Shown here: positions 4,011-30,725 of the stretch, piece by piece
Layout: each line of letters starts with the position of its first letter
Numbering within the stretch: position 1 is the stretch's first letter
Source: Capsulimonadaceae bacterium
GTDB lineage: Bacteria; Armatimonadota; Armatimonadia; Armatimonadales; Capsulimonadaceae
DNA length: 64,000 bases
Direction: 5' to 3'
NCBI GenBank assembly: GCA_965215505.1
Contig: OZ244065.1
Span: 4,701,835 to 4,765,834 of the forward strand
Program-made: the position numbers and the translations under genes
The notes under the pieces: generated by a model
What the model was told of the DNA's origin: nothing
Databases searched by the model: none
What the model saw: the letters and a program-made list of their open reading frames with translations, nothing else

Positions 4011-6476
4011 TCAGATGAAATTTGAACCGGGAGCGATACCAATTCCGCGCGTGAACGTATAGTCGCACTCGTTACCCAACTTGCGAATGCCAAAAATCTC
4101 ATTCCAAAAGGCGGGAGCGACGTCTTCTTCTTTGATCCGCAATTGTACAATGTGTTCAGCCATGCTGCGTAAATGTGCTTCTACAGCGACCTTTAGCTTC
4201 TTAAAGTCTTTGTAGTTGCCACGTTTACGTTTTGCCTCTGTCAATGACTGTGCCAGTATTTCTAACTGTTCAAAGTCTGTATCTGCTGGTCCTTGTGGGA
4301 TGTAATAGCGAAATTGCTTGCCAAAGTCTTGTTCATCAATGAGACGGAACCGACCCATGTTCTCAAACGCTGCTTCGTTAATACAGCGTATAAGATTTCC
4401 TTTGTCATAATCTTTGCCAACTTTTGGATGCTCACCGATAGAAAGGTTGTTATTGACCAGTTCAAAAAAGGCTTGCTGAATACCTAGCAAATCCCGCTCG
4501 CGAACGATTTCCGGCAGATTAGTACGGGAGAAATCTAAATACCAGGCTGGCTCACTTTTCTGATAAATCAATGCAGCGCGTGATTTTTTGTTCTCATTCT
4601 TTAATTCAAAGACAAACACGATGCCTTGTTTGCTATTGCCATCGTGATCCTGTAGCAATCCGTTACGATTACAACGCCCTGCGGCTTGGATAAGATTCGG
4701 TAAAGGACACAGGTCTCGAAAGACAACTGGAAAATCAATATCTACGCCCGCTTCGATCAGTTGTGTTGTAATCAGAACAATCCTTTCGCCCTTATCAAGT
4801 ACCTGTTTAGCTCTCGCTATTTTCCTGCGGCGGTCGTGTGGTGTGAAAAGTGTGCTCAACAGCATGATACACTCATCTTCTTCGGTAGTACTGAGAATAT
4901 CAAAGAGATTTTTGGTGTCGTCAATTGTGTTCAAGATAATAAGACATGACGATTTTTGTTCGCTAACCTTTTCTGCTAGTTTTTCAAGAGAAAACTCGGT
5001 ATCAAGCATGCGTTGAATTTTGTAACGGTCAAAAACTGGACTGCCATAGTACACAGATGCATTTACAAGTTCTTGGGGCTTGACATAAGAAGTGAAAAGC
5101 CTCTCAGGACATTCCTGGGGATCGCGTGTTGCTTTTGAAGCTATCTCCAGAGCTGGCATAGTAGCTGTAGAAATAATAGCGTAAGAGTTGAATTTGCGAC
5201 AAAAGGCATCAAGAAATGCCGTAAAAAAGACATACAAACGCGGGGGTAACGCTTGTATTTCATCAACGAGGAAAATAGTGTTGGAAAAATTGGGCAATCG
5301 CAACAAAGTTGCGTTACGGTTGCTCATAAACGTCTCGAATAGTTGCACGAATGTCGTAATGATGAAAGGGGCATCAAATGTGTCTTGGGCAAAACTCTCT
5401 TGCAACAGCGCATCGATCTTTGCTGGATCGTTATCCAGTTCTTCCTGCAACTTCTCCATGCGCTCATTGTGCGCCTTTGAGTCGATCCGTAGAACAACAT
5501 CTTCTTCAGGATTGTCAGTATTCAGAATATCCCGACAAACCCTTTCTACTTGTTCTGTGATCGAGAGAAAAGGAAGGCCATAAATAATGCCGAGATTGTT
5601 GTTCTTCTGAAGAATTTCATTGGCAAGTGCTAACAGCATCATTGTCTTGCCAGATCCCGTCGGCGAAGTCAATGAGAATACTCGCTGGTCTTTATCAAGC
5701 GCCGATTTGAGAGATGTGACAGCCTCTTCCCGAATTTGAGTACGCACTTTATTAAGTTCGCTATCCATCGTGAAGGATGCTAGGGTTTTTGTGAGTGCGG
5801 TGTCAACGCGGGCTGCGAAAGAGTCGGTGTAGAATGCTCTCCTGAACTCTTTGTTGTCGCCAGCATCCCGCTTGTCAGACTCAATGAGACAGGAGAAAGC
5901 GAATTGTGTTTCCAATACGAAATCAAGTGGGGCAGTCGCAATAACGCTTTCGCTGCACTTGCTAAAATCTTTTAACAGATTTATAGTGGGCTTTTCAAAA
6001 AGATCAAATGGCTTATGATTGGTTAGGCTTTGCAGTGATTGCGATGCTCGCAAAAAATCTGATGCCGGTAAATAGGGCTGCGTTTTAAGAAACTCTACCA
6101 TTCGGTCACGCTCATTGATACCGATGATACTTTCAGTGAAGTTAGTGAGGTTTCCATGATGGCGTGCCGTTAAAGCGATAATGCTGAAAATCTGAGAAGC
6201 AGTTAGCCCAAGCGGATTGTCCCTGTTCTTTGCAAGGAAGCAAAGGAAAGCATAGGCAGAGAGACAAGCATGATTTGAGTACGCACCCGCAGTTGGCGGC
6301 ATATTGCCAAGCTTCTCCTGAAAGAACGGGTTGAGCTTGCCTACATCGTGAAATATGGCGGCAACTTCTGCAATCCAAAGATTCGTGCGTAGCTTTGTGC
6401 CGTCTATGACCCCCTGAGTATGGATGTGAAGCAACTTGTGCGGGTGGGAACGAAAGGCTTCTAGATCAAACTCCAT
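4011..6476 (-). CDS. cas3: Cas3 fused HD nuclease and DEAD/DEAH helicase
   Basis: The product is 821 aa. It has an HD motif (AAIFHDVGKLNPFFQ), Walker A (SPTGSGKT), a DExx box (FLVDEIQA) and helicase C motifs. Visibly AT-rich codon usage. Confidence 0.93.
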   Translation of the reverse strand: MEFDLEAFRSHPHKLLHIHTQGVIDGTKLRTNLWIAEVAAIFHDVGKLNPFFQEKLGNMPPTAGAYSNHACLSAYAFLCFLAKNRDNPLGLTASQIFSIIALTARHHGNLTNFTESIIGINERDRMVEFLKTQPYLPASDFLRASQSLQSLTNHKPFDLFEKPTINLLKDFSKCSESVIATAPLDFVLETQFAFSCLIESDKRDAGDNKEFRRAFYTDSFAARVDTALTKTLASFTMDSELNKVRTQIREEAVTSLKSALDKDQRVFSLTSPTGSGKTMMLLALANEILQKNNNLGIIYGLPFLSITEQVERVCRDILNTDNPEEDVVLRIDSKAHNERMEKLQEELDNDPAKIDALLQESFAQDTFDAPFIITTFVQLFETFMSNRNATLLRLPNFSNTIFLVDEIQALPPRLYVFFTAFLDAFCRKFNSYAIISTATMPALEIASKATRDPQECPERLFTSYVKPQELVNASVYYGSPVFDRYKIQRMLDTEFSLEKLAEKVSEQKSSCLIILNTIDDTKNLFDILSTTEEDECIMLLSTLFTPHDRRRKIARAKQVLDKGERIVLITTQLIEAGVDIDFPVVFRDLCPLPNLIQAAGRCNRNGLLQDHDGNSKQGIVFVFELKNENKKSRAALIYQKSEPAWYLDFSRTNLPEIVRERDLLGIQQAFFELVNNNLSIGEHPKVGKDYDKGNLIRCINEAAFENMGRFRLIDEQDFGKQFRYYIPQGPADTDFEQLEILAQSLTEAKRKRGNYKDFKKLKVAVEAHLRSMAEHIVQLRIKEEDVAPAFWNEIFGIRKLGNECDYTFTRGIGIAPGSNFI

Positions 6477-7162
6477 GCACTTCCTCCTGAAAAACGGTAA
6501 TGTTCGCCGGTCACTGCTATTTCTTGATTTGCAGTTGGATAGATGACGTCAACATATCGTTCCGGCAAATTCCAGAAGTCGTTGTTCTGATAGGTCGGAA
6601 TGCGCTCAAATCCAACGCGGAAGTTGCTAAGGTCAACCCGCTCCCGGTCCAGCTTAAATCGCCGAGGCACAAAGCCTTGTGTGCTAAAGCTTCCTTCTGA
6701 ATGGCTGAACTCACCCTGTTCCAGTGGAATAATTTCCGCAGGGCAATTGTGAAGACCGAAAACCGGTGTGTAATACGACTCACTATTCTGTATGAGTTGA
6801 GTGAACTCCTGAAATAGTCCTTCTGACCGTTCATTCGCGAGCGCAAGTGCGACAGTAAAGTCTGGGTTCTTCAGAAACTCCATCTGCTTTGGAGCCTTCT
6901 CAAACAGATTTTCCGCACGACGCAGAGTAAATGCCCACGACTCTTTTCGCACAGTTCCGCTTACCTGGACTCCGTAAAGTAAATCCTCACTTAGTACTGG
7001 AAATAAGGAACGCATGGCCTCCCGCTCTTGACCTGTGACCGCTCCGATCAACCCTATAAAAGCGGTTTTCGTGATAAAGTCATGTGTCAGCGGATTGTTG
7101 TTAGTTTCCGGCTTTTTAAAGTGTGCCCACCTACCGCGTAGGCGCAACGTCAGCCCTTTCAT
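6461..7162 (-). CDS. cas5: Cas5 (type I-B Cascade subunit)
   Basis: The 233-aa product has a Cas5-type N-terminus (MKGLTLRLRGRWAHFKKPETNNNPLTHDFITKTAFIGLIGAVTG). It lies between cas7 and cas3 and overlaps cas3 by 16 nt. AT-rich. Confidence 0.85.
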   Translation of the reverse strand: MKGLTLRLRGRWAHFKKPETNNNPLTHDFITKTAFIGLIGAVTGQEREAMRSLFPVLSEDLLYGVQVSGTVRKESWAFTLRRAENLFEKAPKQMEFLKNPDFTVALALANERSEGLFQEFTQLIQNSESYYTPVFGLHNCPAEIIPLEQGEFSHSEGSFSTQGFVPRRFKLDRERVDLSNFRVGFERIPTYQNNDFWNLPERYVDVIYPTANQEIAVTGEHYRFSGGSAWSLI

Positions 7163-7164
7163 TT

Positions 7165-8097
7165 TTATCCCTCGGCTTCCAAGAACGTCATCGTGTTGAA
7201 TTTGGGCATCGCCACGAGTTGTTCAGAAAGGCTGGGAACTTCTGTATAGAAGTTGACTGCCTTCACAACAGGCGATTGAGTAAGTTCCAGAAACCGTGAA
7301 AAGTCCAGAGCGTAGTCGTCGAAAGAGCGCAATTGCTCATCTCTCTTGTCCGATTTGAGGGCGATAGAGCGATCTACGCCATAGAGCTTTTTTGTCGCGC
7401 CACTGTAAACGATTTGCAGCAGCAACAAAGAGTTTTGATTTGACTTGGTGCGAGTATTCGCGTTGTTGATGCTCTCCCACAGAGCCTGAAACATCAGTCG
7501 AATGTCGTCTTCAGTGAGGCCGGTATGACGGGCAGAAAAAGGATTGATCCACCCATGAATTTGATTTACGACGTATGGCACCACAGTTGTCGTGCCTATC
7601 GCACCACGTTCTTTGTCTGTGCTAGATGCAAAGACGGAAGTGTTTTGGTGCATGCGTAATTCGACTGCGTTAAGAGAGGGGTTTAGCAGGGCGAACTGGA
7701 CCGGCCCGGTGAGATTGACGGCATTTTTTTCTTGTGTAAGAATTCCTCCGAATAGACGTACATCAGTGAGGGATTTTAGGATTGCTAGAGTGTCCTTATC
7801 CTCCGCGATCTTTTTGAGCGCATTGAAGCGGGCAGCGGCCCCCGACTCTGCATCACCTTTTGCGTTCTTTTCGACACTGCTCCGATCATTGAGGACATAG
7901 ACAGAGTTGCGGTCCATGTCGGCAATGTAGTCACGGATGAAGCGCTTGATACGAACATCACTGACGAGGGCCTTTTTAGTTTCCTCATCGTAGCGCTGCT
8001 CACCCGTGAATGGGTCGCCGTTTGGGATCGAGTAGGTACTTTCGTACAAGAAGAGGATTTCTGACTTATCGACAGGCAGATTTTGCATATTGTTCAT
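7165..8097 (-). CDS. cas7: Cas7 (type I-B/I-C Csh2/DevR-like backbone subunit)
   Basis: The 310-aa product has a characteristic N-terminus (ILFLYESTYSIPNGDP...RYDEETKKALVSDVRIKRFIRDY). It sits between cas8b and cas5. AT-rich. Confidence 0.88.
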   Translation of the reverse strand: MNNMQNLPVDKSEILFLYESTYSIPNGDPFTGEQRYDEETKKALVSDVRIKRFIRDYIADMDRNSVYVLNDRSSVEKNAKGDAESGAAARFNALKKIAEDKDTLAILKSLTDVRLFGGILTQEKNAVNLTGPVQFALLNPSLNAVELRMHQNTSVFASSTDKERGAIGTTTVVPYVVNQIHGWINPFSARHTGLTEDDIRLMFQALWESINNANTRTKSNQNSLLLLQIVYSGATKKLYGVDRSIALKSDKRDEQLRSFDDYALDFSRFLELTQSPVVKAVNFYTEVPSLSEQLVAMPKFNTMTFLEAEG

Positions 8098-8119
8098 TGG
8101 TGTTTGCTCCCTCCCAGGA

Positions 8120-9937
8120 TTATTCTTCGTCTTGGCCTTCTGCGGCGGTCAGGTCTGGCGCTTTAGAACCGTCATCAGCTTTCTGATATGGTTGGAAATA
8201 GCTCTCAAAGAACCCGAAAGCGCAAAAGTCGCTGTCGTACTTTTCGACGCTCTCATCGAAGCTGAGAATTTTTTCTGCTAATTCACTTGAAGTGCGGAAT
8301 GTGAACTTAGTACGATCATGCATCACGAGTTTTTGGTTGATCTCGTTGTGCAATTTGACTACATCAGGCAATGTCGAGATGCGACGGGACAGCAGCCCAA
8401 CGTAGTTCTTCTCGAAAGATTTGATGGGGCTTTTAGGTCCAGCGAATTGGCGGCCCATCTTGCCAAGAAGTGAGCCAACTTGATAGCTTTGAGAACCCTG
8501 TATGTCCATGAGGCGGTCCCCTTCGTAATTTTGCAACAGTATCAGAAAGTAGAAATCGTATTTGAACAGGTTAAAACCAGTTCCACCGTTGCGAATATTG
8601 AACTGTGTTTTTTCGATAAGCGCAGGCAGCAGAACAGGATCGTCGTAATAGGTTTCGCTATAAATTTGCGGCAAGACTTTAAACAGATGGTTCTGGTACT
8701 TCTTTTTCGCCCGCGTCATGTCTCCTAGTATGTTTAGGAATGAACGAGTAATATCTAGCGGAGCAAGATCCTTCTTGAATAGAAGCTGTCTTTCTTGATT
8801 CAACTTGTTGCGGATATGACGTACTTTCTTACTGAGATCAGTGAGCCGACTTTTTTCCAGGCCGGAGATTTCGAGCAAATCTGAATCCGGCGTAGAAGGA
8901 CCACTTCCTGCCTTGCTGAAGATAAAGTCAAACTGAACGATGTTATCATCAACATCATCCATGACGGCTGCAAAGAGCTTATCTAGGTTTGTTTCATCAC
9001 CAGAAATCTCAGGTGAGGGAGCCGCAAGATTTTCCTCGCTTTGCTCCGCTCGGCTCAACGACTTCCGCTCGAAAAACGTCTCAATCTGCTTCGCTGTTAG
9101 GCGGCTGGTGCTGTCTTGTTCATTGCCACGGGGCAGGACGATGATCTTGACGTCCCGTTCGCGAATGACAGCTCTCTGCGAGTAATCGATAGCATAAAGC
9201 AGATTCAAAACATCGTCAAATGAGCGAAAGATGCGACTCTTATACTGGCTCTTGCTATCAAACCCAGGAGCATTATTCTTTCCCGAAGCAAGCGTTTTAT
9301 AAAGAGCCTTTTTGAGAACATAACCGTTCGCGATCTCTGAATACTCGACGAACTCATCAAGCAGTTTTTCATTGATGAGCTTCATCTCGCCTTCAAACTC
9401 ATACCAACTTTTGCCATCAAAATCAAAGTGCAAAAAGATGCTAGGCTTGTCGTGAAGAAGCGCCTCCAAAGCTTCAATGTTGGCCTTTAGCGAACTGCGA
9501 AACTTTTCAATATGAGAATCTGCAAACGCGGCGGCATCTTGTTGGCCGCGCACGAAAGAATTGACTTGGAAGCCCTTTGCCGCCACGGATGGATCACCAA
9601 GAACGAAGTTCGTTTCAGTGATGCTGATGTCGCCCGTTTTGTTATTCGTGACCGTTTGATAGCATATGTCGCCAAAGATATACTTCTTCATCGAGTCCGC
9701 ATCAGAGGTCTTATAGTTGAGATAAAACAGACGGTTCTTGATGAAATCCTCGTCTGTCAGAGGCACCCTGTTGTTGAGGTCGAACGTAAAATCAGGCCGT
9801 ACAGGAATGGAGTAGTAGCTGATTGGCTGTTTCTCAGTGGTTTGTGGTGCTTGCTTAACATACCGATGATGCTTGAGACCACCAGGGCCTTTTACATTGC
9901 GGAAAGTTTCGCCGATCTTCAAAAGCGTTTCTAACAT
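8120..9937 (-). CDS. cas8b: Cas8b-like large subunit of type I-B Cascade
   Basis: The product is 605 aa and is the first gene of the cas8-cas7-cas5-cas3 block. Size, position and the lysine/asparagine-rich composition fit Cas8b. The family call rests on context more than on motifs I can name. Confidence 0.75.
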   Translation of the reverse strand: MLETLLKIGETFRNVKGPGGLKHHRYVKQAPQTTEKQPISYYSIPVRPDFTFDLNNRVPLTDEDFIKNRLFYLNYKTSDADSMKKYIFGDICYQTVTNNKTGDISITETNFVLGDPSVAAKGFQVNSFVRGQQDAAAFADSHIEKFRSSLKANIEALEALLHDKPSIFLHFDFDGKSWYEFEGEMKLINEKLLDEFVEYSEIANGYVLKKALYKTLASGKNNAPGFDSKSQYKSRIFRSFDDVLNLLYAIDYSQRAVIRERDVKIIVLPRGNEQDSTSRLTAKQIETFFERKSLSRAEQSEENLAAPSPEISGDETNLDKLFAAVMDDVDDNIVQFDFIFSKAGSGPSTPDSDLLEISGLEKSRLTDLSKKVRHIRNKLNQERQLLFKKDLAPLDITRSFLNILGDMTRAKKKYQNHLFKVLPQIYSETYYDDPVLLPALIEKTQFNIRNGGTGFNLFKYDFYFLILLQNYEGDRLMDIQGSQSYQVGSLLGKMGRQFAGPKSPIKSFEKNYVGLLSRRISTLPDVVKLHNEINQKLVMHDRTKFTFRTSSELAEKILSFDESVEKYDSDFCAFGFFESYFQPYQKADDGSKAPDLTAAEGQDEE

Positions 9938-10011: not shown

Positions 10012-10440
10012 AGAGATTGTGACCTGCGGCCCTAATCTCCGGCGAGGCACAAGTGCCAGGCGTTGCTATCTGTCCACAACACCATGTAGCCGAAGCAGGT
10101 CGTTTGGCGACCATTCGGGCCGCAGGAACATTTGGGAGAATTATAGCACAGGAAGCAGGGAAACAGCAAAGGGAGAGGGCGACCTGCGGCCCTATCTTCA
10201 GCGAGGCCCTGGGCCAGACGTTGTAACGCCGTGTGACCGAAGAAAGACGTGAAGCGACCGTTCGAGCCGCAGGGACATTTACAGGCGCAGTATACCCCAA
10301 AGAACAGGAGCGCGGGTGGGGCGAAGGGACGACCTGCGATCCTATCTCCCGCGCGAGGCGGGAGCAGGCCGCGAACGCGACTTTTCGGAGTGCAGGGACG
10401 TTTGTCCTCGCGGTATGCCCTAAAGAATCCGCATTGTTCC
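10012..10440. repeat. Three tandem, diverged units of 150-160 bp immediately upstream of cas8b
   Basis: The anchor GACCTGCGGCCCT occurs at 10021 and 10181, and as GACCTGCGATCCT at 10331. Each is complementary to a downstream partner: GGGCCGCAGG at 10117-10126, GCCGCAGG at 10266-10273, GCAGG at 10392-10396. On the - strand each unit carries a -10-like hexamer: TATAAT (10145-10140), TATACT (10294-10289), degenerate in unit 3. Confidence 0.85.
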
Positions 10441-13157: not shown

Positions 13158-13718
13158 GACCTCTGATCACCAGCGGTTTTTCCACAGGGTTATCCATAGT
13201 TGGCTTTCCAGCCTGCCGATTTTTGCGGAGGGCATTTACTGCTTTGATGCCTTACCCGGACGTGTGGCGTGGGTTATAATCTTGCGGGGAGAGTGGTTCC
13301 GCCCAGACGGAACCGTTCTTGGACAGCAAGGAAGATCAGGAAAGGATCTGGTACGGCGATCCGTTGCTCCCTGGACCCTGTCCGTTGTGTCACAACGTCC
13401 GCTGGTGCGGTCGGACGTGGGTTGACGCGGCGCGATCCTTCTGAGTCCCTCGTAACCCGTGCAAAGGTCTGACCATTATAAGCCGGGAACAACTGGAAGG
13501 GGTTTGTTCGCGCGAGCAAGCGATGGGCTAAGTCCCAGCCAGGAATATGCGGACAGGACTAGTCAGAGGCCCACGGTCAAACAGAACTGGTTGCATATCG
13601 TGAGGCTGAGAGGTGTGGGTGAGGCTTATAACTCTTGGCAAAGCCCACGCGCGGCCTCCCGGTCAGTATCCGCCACATTCCGTCCTAACAGAACGCCGGA
13701 CTGCGGCACCAAAAGGGG

Positions 13719-15296
13719 TTAATGACGCTTACGCAGTTCTTCAACCACATCCGCTATGTTGAAGGGCAGATTCAGGATTTTGCAAGCCCTTTGGTATCTC
13801 TTCCTGAAATTGTCGGCTTTGCTCTCTATCTTTCCTGACTCTTGTAGGAACTTGTAAGCGCCTTGGTAAGAGGGCCAGCTTTTTTGCTTGATGTAAATGT
13901 GTAAGACGTCCCTCACCAGCCGGAGGCTGTCTTGGTTGGAGATTTTGTACCTGGTAGCTCCATGCGCTTTCCTCATAAGCGATGCTTGTTCCCTAAGATA
14001 GATCTCCCTGATGGTATCTGCCGTGACCCAGGAGTCAGCCTCAATCGTGATGCTGTCATGCGAAGCCTTCCCGTTCATCAGGCACTCAGCGGCCACACTG
14101 GCTGCATCCGAAGCGTCCATATTCACCACAATGCTTTTGGAAGTGCGGACACTCACCGGTCTATAATCCGCCTTGTCGGTCAGGACGAACATAGCTTGCT
14201 CCCGGCGTCCACCTGGGATCGCGTTCATGACGATCCGCGAGATGAGAAGGTCATAAAGCTCCTCCACCACTGAGCTCGTAAAGAAGCGGGTAAACCTGCC
14301 CGGCGTGTTTTCATTTTCACTCCCTTCGAGATCTGCTTCCCAGAAAAAAGGGTCACGGAGCAGTTTTACGGGTTTATGGTCCGACACCAGTGTCTTCTCA
14401 ATGATGCAACTTCTGCTTCCTGTAGCCCCCGTGCTGCCCGAGGTTACTTCAATGCTGACCGTATACTTGTACCAACGATGTACCTTCCCCAAAGAACCAT
14501 AATGAACAACGGTTGAAGGATAAGTAACTGTCTGACCCTTCAGCCGCTTCCTCTGTTCAGGCGTAACCACTTCTACGGCTTGATTTAGTACCTTCGCCTT
14601 ATGATCCGTGACAGAGGCACCTAACCCCTCGATGTCTGTGAAAGAAAGATACCGGAGAGCGGGGGAGGAGAGAAAAGCCCGCGCCTGGGCTGTGGACAAA
14701 AGGCCTGAAGGCAGGTATTTCTCTCGAAACACTTGCACCTGCGGTAAGAACCCGCAAAGCACACCCCGATGCATTGAAATTGCTTCTATGCCTTCCCGCT
14801 CTTGGGGGCTGAACACTTCTAGACCAACAGGGATCTTCTCTTGCTGAAGAGGCTCCTTAGAAAGCTCAACACTCTCAGCCTGTTGACGGGAACTTTGTTG
14901 TGGCAGTGACCGAGGAGCCTTAGAACACAAGTCTCTTGCTATTTTCCTTTCGAGGTCGTTTTTTGCAACCCCTTGAAGAGCTGATTCAAAACTCTCCCAT
15001 TGCCTGGCTTCTTCCCTTTTCTCCCTCGTTAGTTGTCCCTTCACTCGTTCAACTATTTCCGCTTTTTCGCGTTCATCTAGGCCATCGTGGACCCCTCCAA
15101 TATCGTAATCTGCCGATAATCGTACAAGAAAATACAAAGTCGCTGTCGTAAACTCGACCAAATTTAATCTTTCCCTGAGCCAGTCAAGTGAAGAAATCAG
15201 TTGCTCCTCATCCTCTTCCATTGCCCTGTCCATATCTTCAAAGTCAGACATATAAGCCTCTCTAAATGTCTTGTGGATAATAGTACATGTCGTCAA
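13719..15296 (-). CDS. Hypothetical protein with no recognisable family (525 aa from the ORF-maximal start; 510 aa from the SD-preceded ATG at 15251)
   Basis: This is a long uninterrupted ORF in the most AT-rich part of the element. GAGAGG lies 6 nt upstream of the ATG at 15251. The N-terminus is acidic and the product has no transmembrane segments. Confidence 0.7.
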   Translation of the reverse strand: MTTCTIIHKTFREAYMSDFEDMDRAMEEDEEQLISSLDWLRERLNLVEFTTATLYFLVRLSADYDIGGVHDGLDEREKAEIVERVKGQLTREKREEARQWESFESALQGVAKNDLERKIARDLCSKAPRSLPQQSSRQQAESVELSKEPLQQEKIPVGLEVFSPQEREGIEAISMHRGVLCGFLPQVQVFREKYLPSGLLSTAQARAFLSSPALRYLSFTDIEGLGASVTDHKAKVLNQAVEVVTPEQRKRLKGQTVTYPSTVVHYGSLGKVHRWYKYTVSIEVTSGSTGATGSRSCIIEKTLVSDHKPVKLLRDPFFWEADLEGSENENTPGRFTRFFTSSVVEELYDLLISRIVMNAIPGGRREQAMFVLTDKADYRPVSVRTSKSIVVNMDASDAASVAAECLMNGKASHDSITIEADSWVTADTIREIYLREQASLMRKAHGATRYKISNQDSLRLVRDVLHIYIKQKSWPSYQGAYKFLQESGKIESKADNFRKRYQRACKILNLPFNIADVVEELRKRH

Positions 15297-15380
15297 CGGG
15301 ACGCGGAGCTAAGAGGGGCCACAATCAGCCTTTGAGTCCAATCTGCCACCGGAACGAACAACCTACAGAGGAGGTAACGC

Positions 15381-15512
15381 ATGAAGCCTACGACACCGCA
15401 CAGCCAACCCACGCCTAACCCGCATTGGGTCATGTTCTGGCAAAAAGTTCGAGCCGCAGCGGATGAGTTACGCCGCCTCGAAGCCGAGCAGGCTCAGGGC
15501 GACCAGCTTTAG
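15381..15512 (+). CDS. Small hypothetical protein (43 aa)
   Basis: Translated by hand as MKPTTPHSQPTPNPHWVMFWQKVRAAADELRRLEAEQAQGDQL. A strong SD (GAGGAGG) lies 7 nt upstream. It is too short for the ORF track. Confidence 0.45.
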   Translation: MKPTTPHSQPTPNPHWVMFWQKVRAAADELRRLEAEQAQGDQL

Positions 15513-15535
15513 ATCGAGATCACAAGGAGATCACA

Positions 15536-15706
15536 ATGAACAGTGTTCCATTCAATCGCCCCACAGGCAGCCCCGGCCCGCGCCGCCCCGTTCTGCCGCC
15601 CCGTCTCTTTCTCGACTTGCCCTTACCTGGCCTGGGGCAAACGAGTATTACCGGGGCGCAAACGCCACCGGCGGGCGTCACGGAGTGGGAGAGGGGAAAA
15701 GCCTGA
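15536..15706 (+). CDS. Small hypothetical protein (56 aa) translationally coupled to rep
   Basis: Translated by hand as MNSVPFNRPTGSPGPRRPVLPPRLFLDLPLPGLGQTSITGAQTPPAGVTEWERGKA. An AAGGAG SD lies upstream. Its stop overlaps the rep ATG (TGATG). Confidence 0.45.
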   Translation: MNSVPFNRPTGSPGPRRPVLPPRLFLDLPLPGLGQTSITGAQTPPAGVTEWERGKA

Positions 15707-16629
15707 TGTTCCCAGACTACCTCACGTTCAGCGTGCCCCTGCCCGTGGCAGAGTGGCTACTAGGCAGCCTGACCAGCCCCTACATGAGCAAGCGCTCCCC
15801 GTCAAGCACTTATGAAGAGGTGAGACGTTGCGGCGGCGTCTCAATCTCCGTGCCCGCCAACCCGAACGCGGAGGCGCGTGTCGAAGTGACAGGTGACGGC
15901 TGCCGCGAACTGGAAGCGGCGGGCACGGTAGCCCATTGGCCGACGTTTCTGAGGAGCCTGCTGAATGACGGAGCAAGGTTCACGCGCTTTGACTTCGCCA
16001 TTGACGATCAAATCGGCCTCCTCAATCTCGACCACATCATCACCGCCTGTGAAGAGGGGCGCGTCGTGTCAGCCTACAAGAGCGTGGACTTCCGCCCCAA
16101 GCTGGACGGGACCACCGGCCAGATCATCGGGCGGGGTGTCACGTTCGGCACACGCGGATCGGAGAGCTACGTTCGCATCTATGACAAGGAGTTACAGCAG
16201 GCCGTCCCTGGGCACTGGATCAGAGTGGAGCTAGAGACGCGCAAAGAAAGGGCACAAGCACTGGCAGAGGCGATCGCCAAGCGCGGGGCACAAGTCGTGC
16301 CCCCCATTCTACTCAGCTACCTCAATTTCAAGGTGCAAGGGCGAGACAAGAGGCGGTGCCGCTGGAAAACGGAAAGCTGGTGGACAACCTTCCTGGGCAC
16401 GACGCGACGCCGCCGGCTAGAAGTCGCGCCCCGGAACGTGAGCCTGGAGAAGACTTACCGTTGGCTGATCCGCAGTGTCGCACCGGCGTTCGCGCGAGTA
16501 TATGACAGTGGGATAGGTGAGCAGCTTATCACGCAGATGCTGGCGCACGGGCGGTCGAGGCTGAACCGTATCCCCGCCACGGCTACCAGGAGTGAGGCAG
16601 AGCCAGCGGCGAAGGCGGAGCATCCGTGA
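15706..16629 (+). CDS. Replication initiation factor (Rep_trans family, rolling-circle type)
   Basis: It starts MFPDYLTFSVP, matching the family's typical xDWLxFT start. It also has the YVRIYDKELQ motif typical of Rep_trans proteins. The ORF-track start at 15463 adds an implausible Arg/Pro-rich extension. Confidence 0.8.
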   Translation: MFPDYLTFSVPLPVAEWLLGSLTSPYMSKRSPSSTYEEVRRCGGVSISVPANPNAEARVEVTGDGCRELEAAGTVAHWPTFLRSLLNDGARFTRFDFAIDDQIGLLNLDHIITACEEGRVVSAYKSVDFRPKLDGTTGQIIGRGVTFGTRGSESYVRIYDKELQQAVPGHWIRVELETRKERAQALAEAIAKRGAQVVPPILLSYLNFKVQGRDKRRCRWKTESWWTTFLGTTRRRRLEVAPRNVSLEKTYRWLIRSVAPAFARVYDSGIGEQLITQMLAHGRSRLNRIPATATRSEAEPAAKAEHP

Positions 16630-16734
16630 AGGCATGACAGACCAGCGCGGTCAATCGGAGCCGCCTCGCGGCCCCTTGACTTCAATTCCAGCCGCCGCCA
16701 CAACCTTGGGGAGCGCACTGGCAGCAGGACGGTT

Positions 16735-17019
16735 TTAGCTGCCTGTGCGTTTCCCGGCCACGGCGAGTGCAGCGGAGGATGTCTCCTGCAACGACGCCAC
16801 ATCGCGCTTTCGCCCGCGCCCCGGCCCGCGCGGCTTGATGGTACGCTTGATGCCGTTGTAACTGCCCGGCTGGTAAGCATCGAGGTCAGCCGCGCGCAGT
16901 GCAATCCGATCCAGGACGCGCACGGAAGGCAGCAGGCCCCGCTCGATTGCCTTATAAATGGTGGGCAGCGAGACGCCCTTAATCTCGGCGGCCTTCTTCG
17001 GCGTAAGGTACTCGTCCAT
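16735..17019 (-). CDS. Excisionase-family / MerR-like HTH DNA-binding protein (candidate recombination directionality factor)
   Basis: The sequence MDEYLTPKKAAEIKGVSLPTIYKAIERGLLP is a classic excisionase-type HTH. AGGAG lies upstream of the ATG at 17019. The C-terminal tail is basic. Confidence 0.75.
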   Translation of the reverse strand: MDEYLTPKKAAEIKGVSLPTIYKAIERGLLPSVRVLDRIALRAADLDAYQPGSYNGIKRTIKPRGPGRGRKRDVASLQETSSAALAVAGKRTGS

Positions 17020-17148
17020 GTGTCTCCTGATGCTCGTTTGCCGTGGCAGTTCCTGCTTGTTGTCTAACAGTGAATACATTATGACACAAAGAACGCTGGA
17101 AGTCCAAACTGTTCTCCTTTCAATATTTAGGAGGAATATCTAGGCCAC

Positions 17149-17183
17149 TTGATATTTAATGTACAAAACAGTATACTTATAAT
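17149..17183 (+). promoter_or_regulatory. Sigma70-like promoter upstream of the serine recombinase
   Basis: TTGATA (17149-17154) is followed by a 17-nt spacer and TATACT (17172-17177), with an adjacent TATAAT (17178-17183). It sits in an AT-rich patch about 415 nt upstream of the recombinase start. Confidence 0.5.
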
Positions 17184-17598
17184 GCGGCCCTGACCGCCTG
17201 AATGAGCGTCGTCACACTAGCCGCTAGGCTGTTCGCCCTGCTTCACGGAGACAGCGCCGCCCACACCGAGGCGCGGGCGCGGCCCAGCATCAAAAGCCGT
17301 GCGGTACTTTGGGAAGACGGCTACGAGGCTCGCAGCATGAGGCTGGGGTTGTTGCCGGCAACTTCCCCTAGACAACTTGTACCAGTTCCTGCGGCTTCGA
17401 TAAGCTGGCCCCGTTCGGCTCATACTGATCCTGCTTGCGCCTTCCCACGTTTCCGTTTGGACGGAGGCGTGGGGAGTCTCGTGGCAATTGGGGAGGCTTA
17501 CCGCTCGGCCCTTTGCAGTCCGCCTGAGAGGTTTTTTCATCAAGTAGTCGGGTCCAGGTAGGGGCGCGGCTGCCATAGCAATGCATAGGAGAAGCATC

Positions 17599-19332
17599 AT
17601 GACAACCCCAGACTTCAACAAGTCAAAAGGCGCGGTCCTCTACACCCGCGTCAGCACCGGCGACCAGGACAAAAACGGGACAAGCCCGGAGACGCAGCTT
17701 TCCGCCTGTCGGGCTAGGGCGCTCGCTGAGGGCCTGCCCGTCGTCGCACAGTATCATGACGGCGGCATATCAGGCGGCTTCCTGCTGACCCGCGCGGGGA
17801 TGCAGGCGGCCCTTGCCGACATCCAGGCCGGGCGGGCTGACACGCTCATCTGCGCCAACATCAGCCGCTACAGCCGTGACACCGAACATCAGCAGGCGAT
17901 CAAGAAGGCCGTCAAAGCGGCGGGCGGCCATCTCGTATTCTGCGACATGGCGTTTGATGACACGCCGGAGGGGGATCTCGCATTCGGCGTGATGGGGACT
18001 TTCGCCGAGTATGAGCGCAAAGTGATTCGCCAGAGGACCATGCGGGGCAAGAGGAAGCGCGCGGAGGAGGGGCAGCAACCGCAGCGCAGCCGGTCCCCCT
18101 ACGGCTATCACATCGTCACCAACGCCGAAGTGGCCGCCGGGCTGCACCCTGCCCACCTGCGCGGGCGCTACCTCGTTCTGGAACCGATGGCCGGTATGGT
18201 GCGGCGCATCTTCGCCGATTATCACTCCGGGGCGTTCAGCCTGTCCGCGCTGTGCCTCGCGCTGAACCGTGAGGGGGTTGCGACGCCCGGCCACGGGAGA
18301 GCCTGGCAGGAGGCCACACTGCGGGTCATCCTGATGAACCCCGTTTATAAGGGCGAACCCGTCAGCGGGCGGCAGAAGTGCGTCACCGACGAGAGCCGCA
18401 TCGGGCAACGGCACAAGCTGACGGGCCGCCCCATCCGCACTCCGTACACGCGCACCCTGGCCCCTCCTGATGACCTCCTGACGCTCTCCGCCCCACCTCT
18501 GGTTGACGCCGAGGTTTGGGAGGCCGTGCAGTCGCGCCTGACCCGCATGAGCGGCGAGGGTGGCGGCAGCCCGCGTCAGGTGAGGATGCTGTCGGGCCAC
18601 ACGGTCTGCCCCTACTGCGGCGGCAAAGCCGGCATCAAGTACCAGAAGGCGAACGGGAAGAGATACCGCTACTTCACCTGCAACCAGCACAAACAGGCGC
18701 GGCGCGGACACGAAGGTTCTCCGTGCCGGGGCGAGCTGTATCCGGTGGAGACAGTAGAACAGGCCGTGTTGCAGTCCCTTCGGGATGCTTGGCAGAAGCC
18801 CGCCGCAGTCCAGGCGGCCCTGCACGTCTACACCGAGCCGATGCCGCTCAACAAGCGGACGGGCGAAGACGCCGAAACCCGGAAGGCCTTGGACGACCTG
18901 AAGGTGGAAGAGCAGGCGACCGCACAGGCCCAGGTCGCAGCCATCCGCGCGGGTGCATCACCAGACGCTTTCGCGCCCCTCTTCGCTGACATCGCCGCCC
19001 GGCGAAAGGCGTTACTGGCGCAACAGCAACCGGCGGCCATGAGCGGTGCGGCGGACGAAACGGGGAAGCCGGGCCGGGCAGGGCGGAAGAGCACCAATGT
19101 TGATCTGAAGATGGCCTGCCTGGCGATGGAGGAGGCGTGGCGCGTTCTGACCAGTGAAGGGGTCGAGGGGCACGTCAAACGCGATCTGCTGCTGACACTG
19201 GTAGAGAAGGTGATCTGCCACAAAGACGGGGCTGAAGTCGTGTTTCTCCCCGGCGTGTTCGGGGACGCCGGGGAGGGCGACGGGGTATCAACCCTTTATA
19301 CCACCTGCATCGGCATCAGGACGCACAGGTAG
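17599..19332 (+). CDS. Large serine recombinase (resolvase domain, recombinase domain and zinc-ribbon)
   Basis: It has the catalytic-serine motif AVLYTRVSTGDQ and a Cys cluster (CPYCGG...FTCNQH). The product is 577 aa from the SD-preceded ATG at 17599. The ORF-track start is 17581. Confidence 0.9.
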   Translation: MTTPDFNKSKGAVLYTRVSTGDQDKNGTSPETQLSACRARALAEGLPVVAQYHDGGISGGFLLTRAGMQAALADIQAGRADTLICANISRYSRDTEHQQAIKKAVKAAGGHLVFCDMAFDDTPEGDLAFGVMGTFAEYERKVIRQRTMRGKRKRAEEGQQPQRSRSPYGYHIVTNAEVAAGLHPAHLRGRYLVLEPMAGMVRRIFADYHSGAFSLSALCLALNREGVATPGHGRAWQEATLRVILMNPVYKGEPVSGRQKCVTDESRIGQRHKLTGRPIRTPYTRTLAPPDDLLTLSAPPLVDAEVWEAVQSRLTRMSGEGGGSPRQVRMLSGHTVCPYCGGKAGIKYQKANGKRYRYFTCNQHKQARRGHEGSPCRGELYPVETVEQAVLQSLRDAWQKPAAVQAALHVYTEPMPLNKRTGEDAETRKALDDLKVEEQATAQAQVAAIRAGASPDAFAPLFADIAARRKALLAQQQPAAMSGAADETGKPGRAGRKSTNVDLKMACLAMEEAWRVLTSEGVEGHVKRDLLLTLVEKVICHKDGAEVVFLPGVFGDAGEGDGVSTLYTTCIGIRTHR

Positions 19333-20072
19333 TCGGCGTCGTCGGTGGGGCGGATGACGCCGGGGTGCAGCGGCTCGGTCAGCTCGATGTGCAGGCCCTC
19401 GGTGTCCAGCACGTTCAGCACGTCGGCCAGGTACTTGGCGTTGAAGGCGATCTCCACCAGGCTGGCGTCGCCCGCGCGGGCCACCTCCACCTCCTCGTAG
19501 GCGTTGCCGACGCTCCCGCTCTCCGCCGTGATGGTCAGCCGGTCGCCGTCCTCGGTCGTCCGCAGGACGACCCGGCTGGCCGAGTCGCGGGCGACGATGG
19601 AGGCGCGCTTGACGGCGGCGGCCAGGGGCGCGCGCTCGACGGTCAGGGTCTTGGTGGCCTGGGCGGGGATGACGCGCTCGTAGTTTGGGAACTGGCCGTC
19701 GATCAGGCGCGAGATCAGGGTCGTCTTGCTGCCCTGCCCGTCACTCTTATCGCCTTCCCCCTTGCCGCCGCCGTTCTCGATCTGGAACTGGATCTGGTTG
19801 CCGGACAGGGTGACGACCACCTCGCCGTCCTCGTTGCCGATGATGCGGAGAAGCTCGTTCATGGCGCGCGACGGCACGATGGCGCTGGCGCTGCCCGACC
19901 CCTCCTTGACGGGGCAGTCGCGGACGGCCAGGCGGTGGGTGTCGGTGGCGACCAGGCGCAGGCTGTCGCCCTGGAAGACGACCAGGACGCCGGTGAGGAT
20001 GGCGCGGGTCTCGTCGGTGGAGGTGGCGAAGATGGTCTGCTTGATGGCGTCGGGCATCCCCGGTGAAGCCAT
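19296..20072 (-). pseudogene. dnaN: 5'-truncated dnaN (DNA polymerase III beta clamp, domains II and III only)
   Basis: The 258-aa ORF aligns to the clamp from about residue 125 (AIKQTIFATSTDETRAILTGVLV) to a typical C-terminus (YLCVLMPMQVV). An in-frame TAG lies about 33 codons upstream of the ORF start. Only 136 nt separate it from the next gene, so there is no room for domain I. Confidence 0.75.
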
Positions 20073-20208
20073 CCGGCTGAGGGCGTTGAGCAGGAGACGA
20101 GAACGCGGCTCCCGGCCCGCCGCATCTGCAATGAACGCGACCTACCTGTGCCGCAGAGCCATGACCACATAAAACCGAACACACCGCATCCGCGCATCGT
20201 CAGGCCTG

Positions 20209-28600: not shown

Positions 28601-30725
28601 CAGGCAGCGTGTCCAGGCTGGGCTGTAGATAGTGGCCGCCGTAGACGGGCAGCGACTCGTCTAAAAGGGCGTTGCCGCCGTCGGTCATCTGCGGGCGGGT
28701 CGGGTCCAGCGCGGCCAGCATGTCGGCGGCCCGCTTCATCTCCCGCGTCGTCACCTTGTCCTGCCCGAAGACATGGGCGTTGATGAAGGTGATCTCGTTC
28801 TCCATGCTCCAGATGAAGATGGACGGGTGGTTGCGCTGGCCCTTGACCCAGGCGGCGAGCTGCTGACGCCAGTTTTCATAGAGGGCGGGCCGGGTGATGT
28901 CGTAAAACCCGTTCGCGCCTTCCCCGTCGAAAATGCCGGTGCGGCGGACGGGGACGCCTTGCGCGTCGAAGAAGTCTAAAGCGTCCGGCATCTCCTTCCC
29001 GCCGTAGACGCCCTCCGCCCAGACGCGCTGCATGGTCTGCCCGTGTTTAAGCCACAGGGAAACCGCTTCGAGGTCCGCCCGTCCGTAACCCGCCAGGTCC
29101 GCCCGCCCGTGCCACGGCACGCCGTTCAGGGTGAACTGCGGACCCGACCAGCCCCACTCGCGGAAGCCGAACTTGGTGGTACGCTCGTCAACGGGCCGCC
29201 CGCCGATGCTCAAGGTCGTGACGACGTTGTACTGCGCCGGGGCGTCCGGCCACCACAGCTTGGGGTCGGCCCAGCCCTCGGACAGCCGAACGACCGCGCC
29301 CTGTCCGGCGGGGACGGACACGTCCTGCGGTGCGAACGTCTTGGCGACCGGCCCGCCCGCCAGCGGCACGACCTTGTTCGCGACAGTTACGGTCATCGCT
29401 TGCTCCGTCGGGTTATGCACCGTCACTTCCAGCCCCAGGGTTTTCTTCTTGACCGAGGGAACGGCAAACACGTCGGACGTGTAGGCCCGTCCCGCCACAA
29501 TGAGGGAGGGCGTCAGTAGCAGCCCCGTCTCGTAGTGCGATAGGACGGGCATGTCGAGCTGGTTGGTCGTGTTATAGTGCCAGAAATCGTAAGGGGTGTA
29601 CTGCGGGTGACGCGCGTTCTCGGCATTTGCCAGGCCGTAGAAGGCGTCTTTGACGCCCACCCAGACCTCGTTGACCTGCCCCGGATCGACCGCCTGCGTG
29701 ATGTCGCAGTCCCAGGCCGCATAGGGGGCCTTCGTCCAGCCGCATTGCCGCCCGTTGACGAAGACGGTGGCAATCATGTTCTCGGAGGGGACGTGCAAAT
29801 AGAACGCCCGTCCCGCCGCGCCTGACGGCACGTTTACCCGCGTCCGCAGCCAGTACCGATGCACATAGGTCAGCTCGGGCCGGGCCGCGTTCCGGTCGCC
29901 GGGCACCGAAAGGGCGTGCCAGCTCAGGTCGCCTGCGGCGGGCGCGGCCTTGATCGGCCCCAGCCGGTCGTCCGTCACCGCCTCGTCGTCGGCCGCCGCC
30001 TGCCAGTCGCCTCGGAGCGGCGTGGCCGTCTGTGCCGCGCCGTCCGGGACAGCCAGCGTGAAGACGTGCGTCGCCGCCGCTTTGTCGGCGTCCGAGAGCG
30101 CGGCTAGGTCGCCCGGCTTGTTCGGCCCGTCGGGATGAAACGGGGCCGTCGTCAGGCACAGGGCGTCGGAGGCGTAGACGATCTTCGCGTCCTTGCCCTT
30201 GTCGTCTTTCGTCCGGGACAAGCGGATTTGCAGCGTGTGCGGCCCTGCCGTGAGTGTTTGCCGCCCCAGCGGCAGCCAGGCGACGGGGTTCCAGGTCTGG
30301 AGTTCCTCCACGTCTAGGGTGTCCGCGTCCGGCCTCACCGTCGCCCACGCGCCGCCGTCCATGCGCCACTCAAAGGAGGAGCGGACGCGCTCGTACCCAA
30401 CCCGGTCCCAGACGCCATAATCGCCCGCCGCCGGTGCCGCGATGCCATACGTCAGCACGATCCCTTCCGCCGGGACCGTCTTCGCCACGTCCCCGGCCTC
30501 GATGTTAACATGGAGCCACTTGCCGCCCGCAAGGTACTGCGGTCGGCCCACGTCTTCGATAGTCGGCTTGACCGAGGCAGGCGTGACGGACGTCGGCGCT
30601 TCGCCCTCCACCCAGGCAAAGTTCGCGGGCGCGTCGGCGCGGGCTGTCAGAGGAAGGAGGCTGAGGGCGAGGAGGGCGAAAGCAAACGGGGCAAAGGCGA
30701 AAAGGGGGCGGCGTTTATGAGGCAT
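25683..30725 (-). CDS. Very large secreted multidomain protein with a glycoside hydrolase family 2-like core
   Basis: The product is 1680 aa from the ATG at 30725. It has a signal peptide (MPHKRRPLFAFAPFAFALLALSLLPLTARA) and the GH2 signature NHPSIFIWSMENE. The ORF-track start at 30881 would read through an intergenic palindrome. Confidence 0.8.
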   Translation of the reverse strand: MPHKRRPLFAFAPFAFALLALSLLPLTARADAPANFAWVEGEAPTSVTPASVKPTIEDVGRPQYLAGGKWLHVNIEAGDVAKTVPAEGIVLTYGIAAPAAGDYGVWDRVGYERVRSSFEWRMDGGAWATVRPDADTLDVEELQTWNPVAWLPLGRQTLTAGPHTLQIRLSRTKDDKGKDAKIVYASDALCLTTAPFHPDGPNKPGDLAALSDADKAAATHVFTLAVPDGAAQTATPLRGDWQAAADDEAVTDDRLGPIKAAPAAGDLSWHALSVPGDRNAARPELTYVHRYWLRTRVNVPSGAAGRAFYLHVPSENMIATVFVNGRQCGWTKAPYAAWDCDITQAVDPGQVNEVWVGVKDAFYGLANAENARHPQYTPYDFWHYNTTNQLDMPVLSHYETGLLLTPSLIVAGRAYTSDVFAVPSVKKKTLGLEVTVHNPTEQAMTVTVANKVVPLAGGPVAKTFAPQDVSVPAGQGAVVRLSEGWADPKLWWPDAPAQYNVVTTLSIGGRPVDERTTKFGFREWGWSGPQFTLNGVPWHGRADLAGYGRADLEAVSLWLKHGQTMQRVWAEGVYGGKEMPDALDFFDAQGVPVRRTGIFDGEGANGFYDITRPALYENWRQQLAAWVKGQRNHPSIFIWSMENEITFINAHVFGQDKVTTREMKRAADMLAALDPTRPQMTDGGNALLDESLPVYGGHYLQPSLDTLPEGAYDRAALAHRQIWPITQAKPILLGEDFFANGVDPAELATVGGESAFVGKAESHPAVGLAARMLSEGYRWNGINFHFWFGGETDLQYPAWQPVAVLCRQWDWTFGGGQKVTRTLGIFNDTHDASPITLTCVLTVGGRQIARTSKACAVPAGGDRKFDVTLPMPAAADRQEGTWTLTLTRAGKEVYRDVKAVSVLPVGIRTARHFHRAGARVQAIQPLPGTGSLAVYDPAGTVAALLNAQRLPFTRLASLNVLPAGAKVLIIGPDALTAAQSTSSALAAYASGGHTVIVLEQKNPLRFQALPGDMAPDTNRGGIAFAEDLDHPVLRGLAQKDFFTWGQDGTVYRDAYVKPTTGGKSLVQCGPRLQDTALAEMTAGRGEMLISQLVIGQKLTTNPVAQKLLLNMVFYGLAYRQVFHPVTAAVGDDAPLLKAMEAVGLDYGKAADPLAALGKPGGIAVVRATPAALHALARNKARVEAFTRGGGWLVLNDVTPEGLADYNALVGVDHLIRPFGQEKVTWPAVRNPLTAGLATSAIVMGSGKQIFGYSAGQYPDADAYSYVLDYDDVAPFGKSPFFAWDKITNNYTQADGFWPLIINFPGPEPGKTTGIPITLPRSEKITQFTYVQDLNYNPTTKIALVFNGTDRVPLDVQPNGDPQTFTLSPPRMAKEITLQVVDYARKPGSTNIGLDNIYLKAARPASFYRSVRPLLNIGAMLEYPRGAGGILLCNVKFKEAETNPENAGKKQAILATLLRNLHAPFSGGKTVIAGAADLTYTPLDLSRQANQYLTDRGWFGDKAYTFADLPRGRQHFAGVPYTLYDFATSPVPSVVMLGGNGVPGGLPDHVVGIPVNRKADALFFLQAARLDSRRNADEVKQGKRYEMADYVVHYADGTAAKVPVYAEISVDDYRQTVPTALPGAQTAWAKPFAGTPYSAVAYSQQWNNPFPAKVIGTVDLVYGPDRRGVPALLALTAASAR

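Follow-up and report, generated by a model that had tools for sequence, protein, structure and literature searches.

The chromosome of a Capsulimonadaceae bacterium (Armatimonadota) carries a large serine recombinase (LSR) whose gene runs into the 3' end of a second, partial copy of dnaN. In a window of 64,000 nucleotides (positions 4701835–4765834 of the complete, 6.18-Mb genome; coordinates refer to this window unless marked as genome positions), the LSR is accompanied by a rolling-circle replication initiator (Rep), a helix-turn-helix (HTH) protein, a 510-aa protein, and a type I-B CRISPR-Cas system. On balance, the locus is best explained as an LSR island that resembles the staphylococcal cassette chromosome (SCC) and includes the CRISPR-Cas system, and not as a compact 6-kb element beside it. 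The latter had been proposed in an initial inspection without database searches (the sequence-only reading), which described a compact, self-sufficient integrative and replicative element of 5.6–6.2 kb parked next to the CRISPR-Cas locus. All genes on its list are present and intact, as judged from open reading frames (ORFs) and domain matches. Its boundaries have to be redrawn: the right end is a dnaN junction at 19296, the window contains no left attachment (att) site, two genes of the family are missing, and the matching repeats are located 20.3 kb away in a relative (genome G018) and 37.2 kb away here, beyond the CRISPR-Cas system.

Attachment sites and extent of the proposed island

The right junction consists of the 17-bp terminus of dnaN (CGATGCAGGTGGTATAA, 19296–19312) and an element arm (AGGGTTGA, 19288–19295). 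There are exactly three copies of the 17-mer in the 6.18-Mb genome and none in a reversed control; one is in the true dnaN, one at the window junction, and one, in the same orientation, at genome 4683880–4683896, which is 17.9 kb to the left of the window start (partner site, genome 4683880–4683909). By our own estimate, the chance expectation of an exact 17-mer in a genome this large is ~7e-4. The sequence at the third copy is ...GGTTCTCAACCCTGCACA-CGATGCAGGTGGTATAA-TCTAGATGGAAGCGG, after which comes a hairpin with a 9-bp stem. The TCAACCCT that precedes it is the exact reverse complement of the AGGGTTGA that follows the TAA at the window junction, and the extended arms match at 11 of 13 positions; an 8-mer at the matching distance would arise by chance with a probability of roughly 3e-4. 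The pairing of the arms appears to be specific, because LSRs of other lineages have other arms. When the two halves are joined, inverted arms of 8 bp flank a 22-bp stretch that includes the dnaN terminus; the result is plausibly the island site of the LSR. The halves display the short shared core and the imperfect inverted arms of an LSR attachment site, and the island adjoins the final codons of dnaN and has an extra copy of the terminus at its far end. The pattern of the joined site is present in no other genome of the genus.

The sites that fit the LSR bracket genome 4683897–4721129 (~37.2 kb). This segment contains one LSR, the rep module, the gene of the 510-aa protein, a WYL regulator, cas6, a gene with a PIN domain, every effector and adaptation cas gene, an array of 84 repeats, and ~14 kb of genes with mixed GC content. 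With the matching repeat and its inverted arm situated beyond the CRISPR-Cas system, the latter probably lies inside the island rather than adjoining it. The sequence-only reading had asked why the element coexists with an apparently complete type I-B system; if the island carries that system, their coexistence would need no special explanation. The features of the window are as follows (strand in brackets):

1–1684 (+): CRISPR array, 84 repeats in total (genome 4697792–4703518), beginning before the window; inside the putative att-bounded segment
2204–9937 (−): type I-B genes cas1, cas4, cas3, cas5, and cas7 (Pfam matches) and a 605-aa ORF in the position of cas8b; inside the putative att-bounded segment
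11142–13157 (−): cas6 and WYL/WCX regulator, the last stretch in common with the nearest relative (G012)
13226–13718: non-coding stretch of 493 bp, present here but not in G012
13719–15251 (−): 510-aa protein without assignment, divergent from the rep operon
15381–15512 (+): mini-ORF of 43 aa, conserved protein
15536–15706 (+): mini-ORF of 56 aa, conserved protein
15706–16629 (+): Rep_trans initiator of 307 aa (PF02486)
16630–16734: gap of 105 bp, where two family genes stand in other copies
16735–17079 (−): HTH_17/excisionase-type protein (PF12728), alternative start at 17019
17080–17580 (+): AT-rich, promoter-like patch, then an untranslated stretch before the LSR gene
17581–19332 (+): LSR of 583 aa with Resolvase, Recombinase, and Zn_ribbon_recom domains
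19288–19312 (−): right attachment junction, comprising the 17-bp dnaN terminus and the arm
19296–20051 (−): 3' duplicate of dnaN, 756 bp, clamp domains II and III
20052–20208: 157 bp between the dnaN fragment and a host M28 peptidase gene

A similar arrangement exists in G018, where a copy of the terminus (14 of 17 positions) is located 20.3 kb from the stop codon of dnaN. A second terminus scar, which stems from a different dnaN allele (GTGCAGGTCGTGTGA), follows ~55 bp further on (locus L060, 10532–10618; contig C38, ~30532–30618). The end of that island is marked by a perfect AT-rich palindrome or hairpin, after which the GC content becomes host-like.

Neither ungapped scans nor local alignments of the right arm recovered a left attachment site between 13150 and 15300 that scored better than shuffled sequences. 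No left copy of the terminus and no inverted arm were detected elsewhere in the window (17-mer with 3 mismatches; repeat finder), and the non-coding stretch at 13226–13718 contains no att-like sequence, RNA family, or unusual fold. The comparison with related genomes that the sequence-only reading had recommended for both attachment sites has defined the right junction; a left end within the element as originally drawn was not found. The downstream arm of the true dnaN was not found elsewhere in the genome or in the fetched loci. The relatives also offer no empty version of the site: its two flanks do not adjoin each other in any of them, and the neighbors of the M28 peptidase flank differ in G012, G004, and G014.

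The far end of the segment is bordered by further fragments. A 250-bp relic of the same junction is located at genome 4682738–4683022 (locus L019, 6739–7023); it comprises 125 bp of the 3' end of an LSR of the same lineage and 130 bp of the end of dnaN, with 82.6% identity to the window junction; its 27-bp att core has been deleted between GAT.CC direct repeats. Between this relic and the copy of the dnaN terminus is an islet of ~0.9 kb on the minus strand (genome ~4683040–4683790; L019 ~7040–7790), which consists of the gene of a 164-aa HEPN protein followed by a small ORF and probably represents a toxin–antitoxin islet. Because the islet and the relic lie just outside the segment, the locus has the appearance of a stacked array on a dnaN decoy.

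The recombinase and its target

The LSR comprises a Resolvase domain (PF00239; E = 5.3e-32, residues 18–165), a Recombinase domain (PF07508; E = 1.9e-12), and a Zn_ribbon_recom domain (PF13408; E = 8.3e-9), and it matches the integrase family phrog_95 (E = 1.2e-83). Its catalytic motif, YTRVSTGDQ, includes the serine nucleophile. The tail of the protein (LYTTCIGIRTHR) overlaps the target gene, with the last 12 codons of the LSR being the antisense of the last codons of dnaN. The best match in NCBIfam is CcrB, with a score of 74 bits that is far below the cut-off of 900; the score for CcrC is only 43 bits (cut-off 900).

The dnaN locus was surveyed in 22 other genomes of the genus, each of which has a single dnaN. 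LSRs with 45–65% identity to that of the window converge on the sole dnaN of five relatives (G016, G018, G001, G008, and G002), with an overlap of 31–37 nt between the LSR gene and the end of dnaN, including its stop codon. An LSR at the end of dnaN, or the C-terminus of an LSR at a contig edge, occurs in 10 of the 22 genomes (at least 10 of the 20 informative ones), and a short LSR remnant in another three. No LSR was found at the end of dnaN in seven genomes, and the site is uninformative in two. Clean empty sites (n = 5, including the true dnaN of the present genome) consist of the stop codon, ~10 nt, and a GC hairpin; at occupied sites, the stop codon is followed by (T/A)AAGTT or a similar sequence. 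The stop codon of dnaN is the target of this LSR family. No report of the dnaN stop codon as a landing site of recombinases was found in the literature searched.

The DNA downstream of dnaN is different in every genome examined. The cargo at this site in the relatives is defense-like and includes AbiEii (G002), an SMC-type ATPase (G008), a PLD-SNF2 helicase with an Eco57I-type methylase (G001), and an HNH helicase with a Phage_CRI Rep (G016).

Two additional homologs of the LSR are encoded elsewhere on the chromosome. A second full-length LSR (genome 608154–609908, minus strand; 46% identical to the window LSR) appears to interrupt a dprA-like gene, and the converging reading frame contains the motif ...SGGARGVDTYAH... 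up to the tail of the LSR. The third copy (genome 4219364–4221001; 50% identical) has a premature stop at 4220560 and is probably a pseudogene.

A partial dnaN duplicate as a probable docking site

The true dnaN is located at 3.018 Mb, and its site is unoccupied. A second match to dnaN is present in this genome alone among the 24 genomes compared. The ORF of the fragment (19296–20072) lacks clamp domain I and covers positions 134–366 of TIGR00663. It is 96.8% identical to the true gene over 759 bp, and both share a lineage-specific insertion. The 24 differences are clustered in two patches, one consisting of eight third-position changes within 22 nt and the other of indels; the remainder is identical. 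This mosaic pattern suggests that the fragment originated from a close strain or was subject to gene conversion. The 756-bp duplicate is apparently a docking site, not the functional dnaN. The idea that a long dnaN fragment is part of every element of the family was rejected, since each of the relatives has only a single match to dnaN.

A separate peculiarity of the true locus is an insert of 2.3 kb between dnaA and dnaN (locus L014, 3475–5792; genome ~3015475–3017792), which is not present in the relatives and contains an ORF of 454 aa without a Pfam match.

The Rep–HTH–LSR module

The LSR belongs to a module with a conserved gene order: two mini-ORFs, rep, orfX (~115 aa), orfY (~230 aa), the HTH protein on the minus strand, and the LSR. 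It is located at the true dnaN in G018 and in a metagenomic contig (JAABUK010000506.1, to which a second contig is 99.8% identical), and at a site other than dnaN in JAABUZ0100000735.1. Nothing upstream of the first mini-ORF is common to the four family copies, and the divergent slot beside the rep operon is occupied by unrelated genes in the relatives. OrfX and OrfY share 45–57% identity among the three other copies but are missing from the window, where rep and the HTH gene are separated by only 105 bp; by comparison with those copies, the gap at 16630–16734 is best regarded as a deletion scar. A frameshifted remnant of orfY is located at genome 4693882–4694338 (minus strand) in inverted orientation, ~3.5 kb away from where the CRISPR array begins.

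The module is absent from G012, whose homology to the window breaks at 13225 and resumes at 20205. With the target sites of the relatives either occupied or empty, the surroundings of the LSR, the HTH protein, and the rolling-circle Rep are mobile-element DNA, as had been assumed. The lower GC content noted for the left part is likewise real, with 49.8% in the gene of the 510-aa protein, 62% in rep, 66% in the LSR gene, and ~68% in host-like genes.

Rep contains a Rep_trans domain (PF02486; E = 7.9e-35) with a score of 120.7 bits, well above the curated cut-off of 29.6. Translation starts at the ATG at 15706, which is the shorter form given in the sequence-only reading; the alignment with the homolog in G018 begins at the first residue of this 307-aa protein. 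Among solved structures, the best match is to the plasmid initiator in PDB entry 4CIJ (E = 8.9e-21). The catalytic motifs (FDFAIDD, VRIYDK, VELETR) are intact, including the tyrosine and the metal-binding acidic residues, and D96, D100, D101, R157, I158, Y159, K161, and E175 are invariant in six relatives. Among plasmids, the best matches (~27–30% identity) are from replicons of 3.2–3.3 kb, and the majority of plasmids that encode similar Reps have been typed as mobilizable.

The two mini-ORFs encode conserved proteins. The 43-aa product (motif PNPHW..FW..VRAAA.EL) has 46–67% identity to its homologs in G018 and in the metagenomic loci L091, L092, and L093; for the 56-aa product (motifs SPGPRRPV.P and DLPL.GL), the identity to homologs in the same genome and loci is 45–53%. 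The stop codon of the 56-aa ORF overlaps the ATG of rep (TGATG). The HTH protein matches PF12728 (HTH_17; E = 2.4e-8) and TIGR01764. No other partner of the LSR is as well conserved (61–71% identity in the relatives), and an HTH_17 gene adjoins the LSR also in G002. The stretch between the HTH and LSR genes (17080–17580) has no special fold (z-score 0.15).

In L093, two details accompany the module. The first 110 bp of the locus are apparently the terminal (3') part of a transposase gene and precede the first mini-ORF by ~300 bp, which may explain the break in the assembly. A copy of the dnaN terminus (14 of 17 positions; 3907–3923, minus strand) is located at the boundary of the HTH and LSR genes, with a chance expectation of 0.01; it could be a binding site of the recombinase at its own promoter or a chance match.

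The CRISPR-Cas system

The flanking type I-B locus is real and comprises cas1, cas4, cas3, cas5, cas7, an ORF in the cas8b position, cas6, and the array of 84 repeats. The GC content of the cas genes at 4011–9937 is 46%. The ORF in the cas8b position (605 aa) has no match to any family. The search for spacer matches that had been suggested as a check gave none to the element (0 of 83), and none elsewhere in the genome apart from one partial match, that of the spacer at array position 4702845 to genome 3614383–3614406 (23 of 24 positions). The DUF3800-IX small RNA (RF02968, 38.6 bits) was matched at 10328–10397 on the minus strand, between the gene in the cas8b position and the PIN and cas6 genes.

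The 510-aa protein

Profile and structure searches have assigned Rep, the HTH protein, and the LSR, and have left the 510-aa protein (ORF 13719–15296, minus strand; probable ATG at 15251) without a match in Pfam, NCBIfam, PHROGs, PADLOC, a profile search of PDB, or tblastn searches of plasmids and phages. Word-index searches returned only the query itself, and a structure prediction from the single sequence was unusable (mean pLDDT 35). The search space comprised 1.84 billion representative proteins, among which there are 21 distant relatives, and 401 genomes of the phylum, 13 of which encode members of the family. A tyrosine or serine integrase and/or a primase-type replication gene is adjacent in 6 of the 8 contexts examined. 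In six loci (L052, L054, L055, L056, L058, and L059), relatives of the protein occur in small integrative elements with unrelated tyrosine or serine integrases; the replicases beside them are unrelated as well (PrimPol-D5, PrimPol-DUF3987, DUF3854). The genes of unassigned function in the equivalent slot of G018 and G090 are not homologous to that of the 510-aa protein.

This is the position in which many integrative elements encode a master regulator. A role in regulation or maintenance is a tentative first guess from its gene neighborhood, followed by a slightly more doubtful role as cargo, in defense or anti-defense.

Proposed mechanism and alternative explanations

In the proposed scheme, the LSR would pair the island site, consisting of the arms TCAACCCT and AGGGTTGA around the spare 17-bp end of dnaN, with the terminus of dnaN, and the crossover would take place inside the shared 17 bp. 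The target gene would be left intact and its terminus repeated at both ends of the island, so that further islands could stack there. In the present genome, the island would have used the 756-bp duplicate as a decoy docking site, leaving the true site empty. A far end 37.2 kb to the left would place the gene of the 510-aa protein, the WYL regulator, and the entire type I-B CRISPR-Cas system, array included, within the island or a fused array of islands. After excision, Rep and the two mini-ORFs may replicate the circle by a rolling-circle route, and the HTH protein may control or direct the recombinase. The predicted junction of the circle contains TCAACCCTGCACACGATGCAGGTGGTATAAAGGGTTGA and reads ...GGTTCTCAACCCTGCACACGATGCAGGTGGTATAAAGGGTTGATACCCC...; the vacated site is predicted to read ...(dnaN fragment)GATGCAGGTGGTATAATCTAGATGGAAGCGG....

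Several observations weigh against an SCC-like island of this extent. The loss of orfX and orfY may have rendered the copy in the window defective. The inverted orfY pseudogene inside the 37 kb makes the segment at least composite, and the junction relic is a sign that the locus collects debris. The scheme does not account for the origin of the 756-bp duplicate. No origin of replication was recognized, as there is neither a non-coding block conserved with G018 nor an unusual fold. Moreover, cas6 and the WYL gene share 85% identity with their homologs in G012, which is the same divergence as that of core genes, and have a host-like GC content; with such core-like divergence, CRISPR-Cas could be resident DNA between the scars of different events. 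An alternative is a stranded remnant, a reduced and immobile LSR–Rep module that was copied to this position with 756 bp of dnaN attached, either through illegitimate recombination or in a transfer from a sister strain. An older element would then be the source of the distant 17-bp copy, and CRISPR-Cas would be resident chromosome trapped between scars. The two lost genes, the ectopic position, the relic and the family pseudogene nearby, the core-like properties of cas6 and the WYL gene, and the rearranged flanks in every relative examined speak for such a remnant. We nevertheless consider it unlikely, because the pairing of the distant arm is specific to the arm of the LSR lineage in the window and does not extend to other lineages, the terminus repeat has no mismatch in its 17 bp, and neither the remaining reading frames nor the catalytic motifs are disrupted.

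The 5.6–6.2 kb element of the sequence-only reading, with a left end near 13.2–13.7 kb, would agree with the movement of the module as a unit in four contexts, with the break in homology to G012 at 13225, and with the lower GC content of the left part. It is nonetheless distinctly improbable: there is neither a terminus copy nor an inverted arm at the left, the four family copies have nothing in common ahead of the first mini-ORF, the relatives have unrelated genes in the slot next to the rep operon, and the island of G018 is ~20 kb long. The same reading correctly stated that capsid and conjugation genes are not visible in the stretch. Its statement that mobilization genes are absent as well cannot be upheld, because Rep_trans proteins can act as relaxases, as they do in some streptococcal integrative mobilizable elements (PMC7563843). 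If Rep were mainly a MobT-like relaxase that nicks an origin of transfer, with a helper pore transferring the island, the locus would be an integrative mobilizable element. The precedent of the streptococcal elements (PMC7563843, PMC5704250), a weak match to MobT (NCBIfam NF041493), and the typing of most plasmids with similar Reps as mobilizable point in that direction. The MobT score of 93.2 bits, however, is far below the cut-off of 600; the closest protein of solved structure initiates plasmid replication, and the best plasmid matches are to replicons of just 3.2–3.3 kb. Nor was a coupling protein or pore ATPase found in the genome, which has no match to VirD4/TraG (PF02534) or AAA_10 (PF12846) and encodes only the chromosomal FtsK. 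A mobilizable element is an improbable explanation, and Rep more likely serves to replicate the excised circle.

The SCC-like island can be taken one step further. It is possible, if doubtful, that the dnaN duplicate serves as a decoy pad that collects LSR islands and spares the real gene, and that its present occupant is an excisable rolling-circle island of ~37 kb with a complete type I-B CRISPR-Cas system and 84 repeats, which would represent an SCC-like mobile CRISPR cassette in Armatimonadota.

Comparison with known systems

The likeness to SCC and SCCmec lies in the insertion by an LSR at the 3' end of a conserved gene that stays intact, in the repetition of the terminus at the ends of the island with tandem stacking (by analogy only, as the gene is dnaN and not rlmH), and in CcrB as the best NCBIfam match of the LSR. 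SCC elements carry their own replication genes (PMC7581432), and their cargo varies, including defense genes and, in some variants, CRISPR-Cas (PMC13017219). The differences are equally clear: the LSR in the window is not a Ccr (74 bits versus 900), the target is dnaN instead of rlmH/orfX of SCC, the replication gene encodes a Rep_trans rolling-circle initiator instead of a Cch helicase with primase, the host belongs to another phylum, and docking takes place at an incomplete second copy of the target gene.

The integrative mobilizable elements of Firmicutes (PMC5704250, PMC7563843) resemble the module in combining an integrase, Rep_trans, and small regulators in the absence of pore genes. They are only a few kilobases in size and, unlike the present island, mostly use tyrosine integrases that insert at the 3' ends of ribosomal-protein genes; moreover, the genome yielded no conjugative element that could act as a helper, and a relaxase role of Rep would be putative. 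The Rep_trans plasmids (pT181 group; PDB entry 4CIJ) share the catalytic domain with its conserved tyrosine and acidic residues. They differ in sequence (~27–30% identity) and in that the Rep in the window is encoded by a chromosomally integrated element, in which no double-strand or single-strand origin was recognized.

Implications

The essential, origin-proximal dnaN stays intact, as does the staphylococcal orfX in the case of SCC elements. The use of a 756-bp spare piece of the target gene as a docking site would be unusual and is testable. With both half-sites defined within a few bases, the LSR is a candidate tool for site-specific integration, and the 510-aa protein belongs to a family without annotation, whose genes occur repeatedly in integrative elements that differ in having unrelated integrases and replicases. 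If the boundaries of the 37-kb segment hold, a full CRISPR-Cas system with a long array would be the cargo of a recombinase island that has its own rolling-circle replicon, which would bear on the movement of CRISPR-Cas systems between chromosomal contexts in these bacteria.

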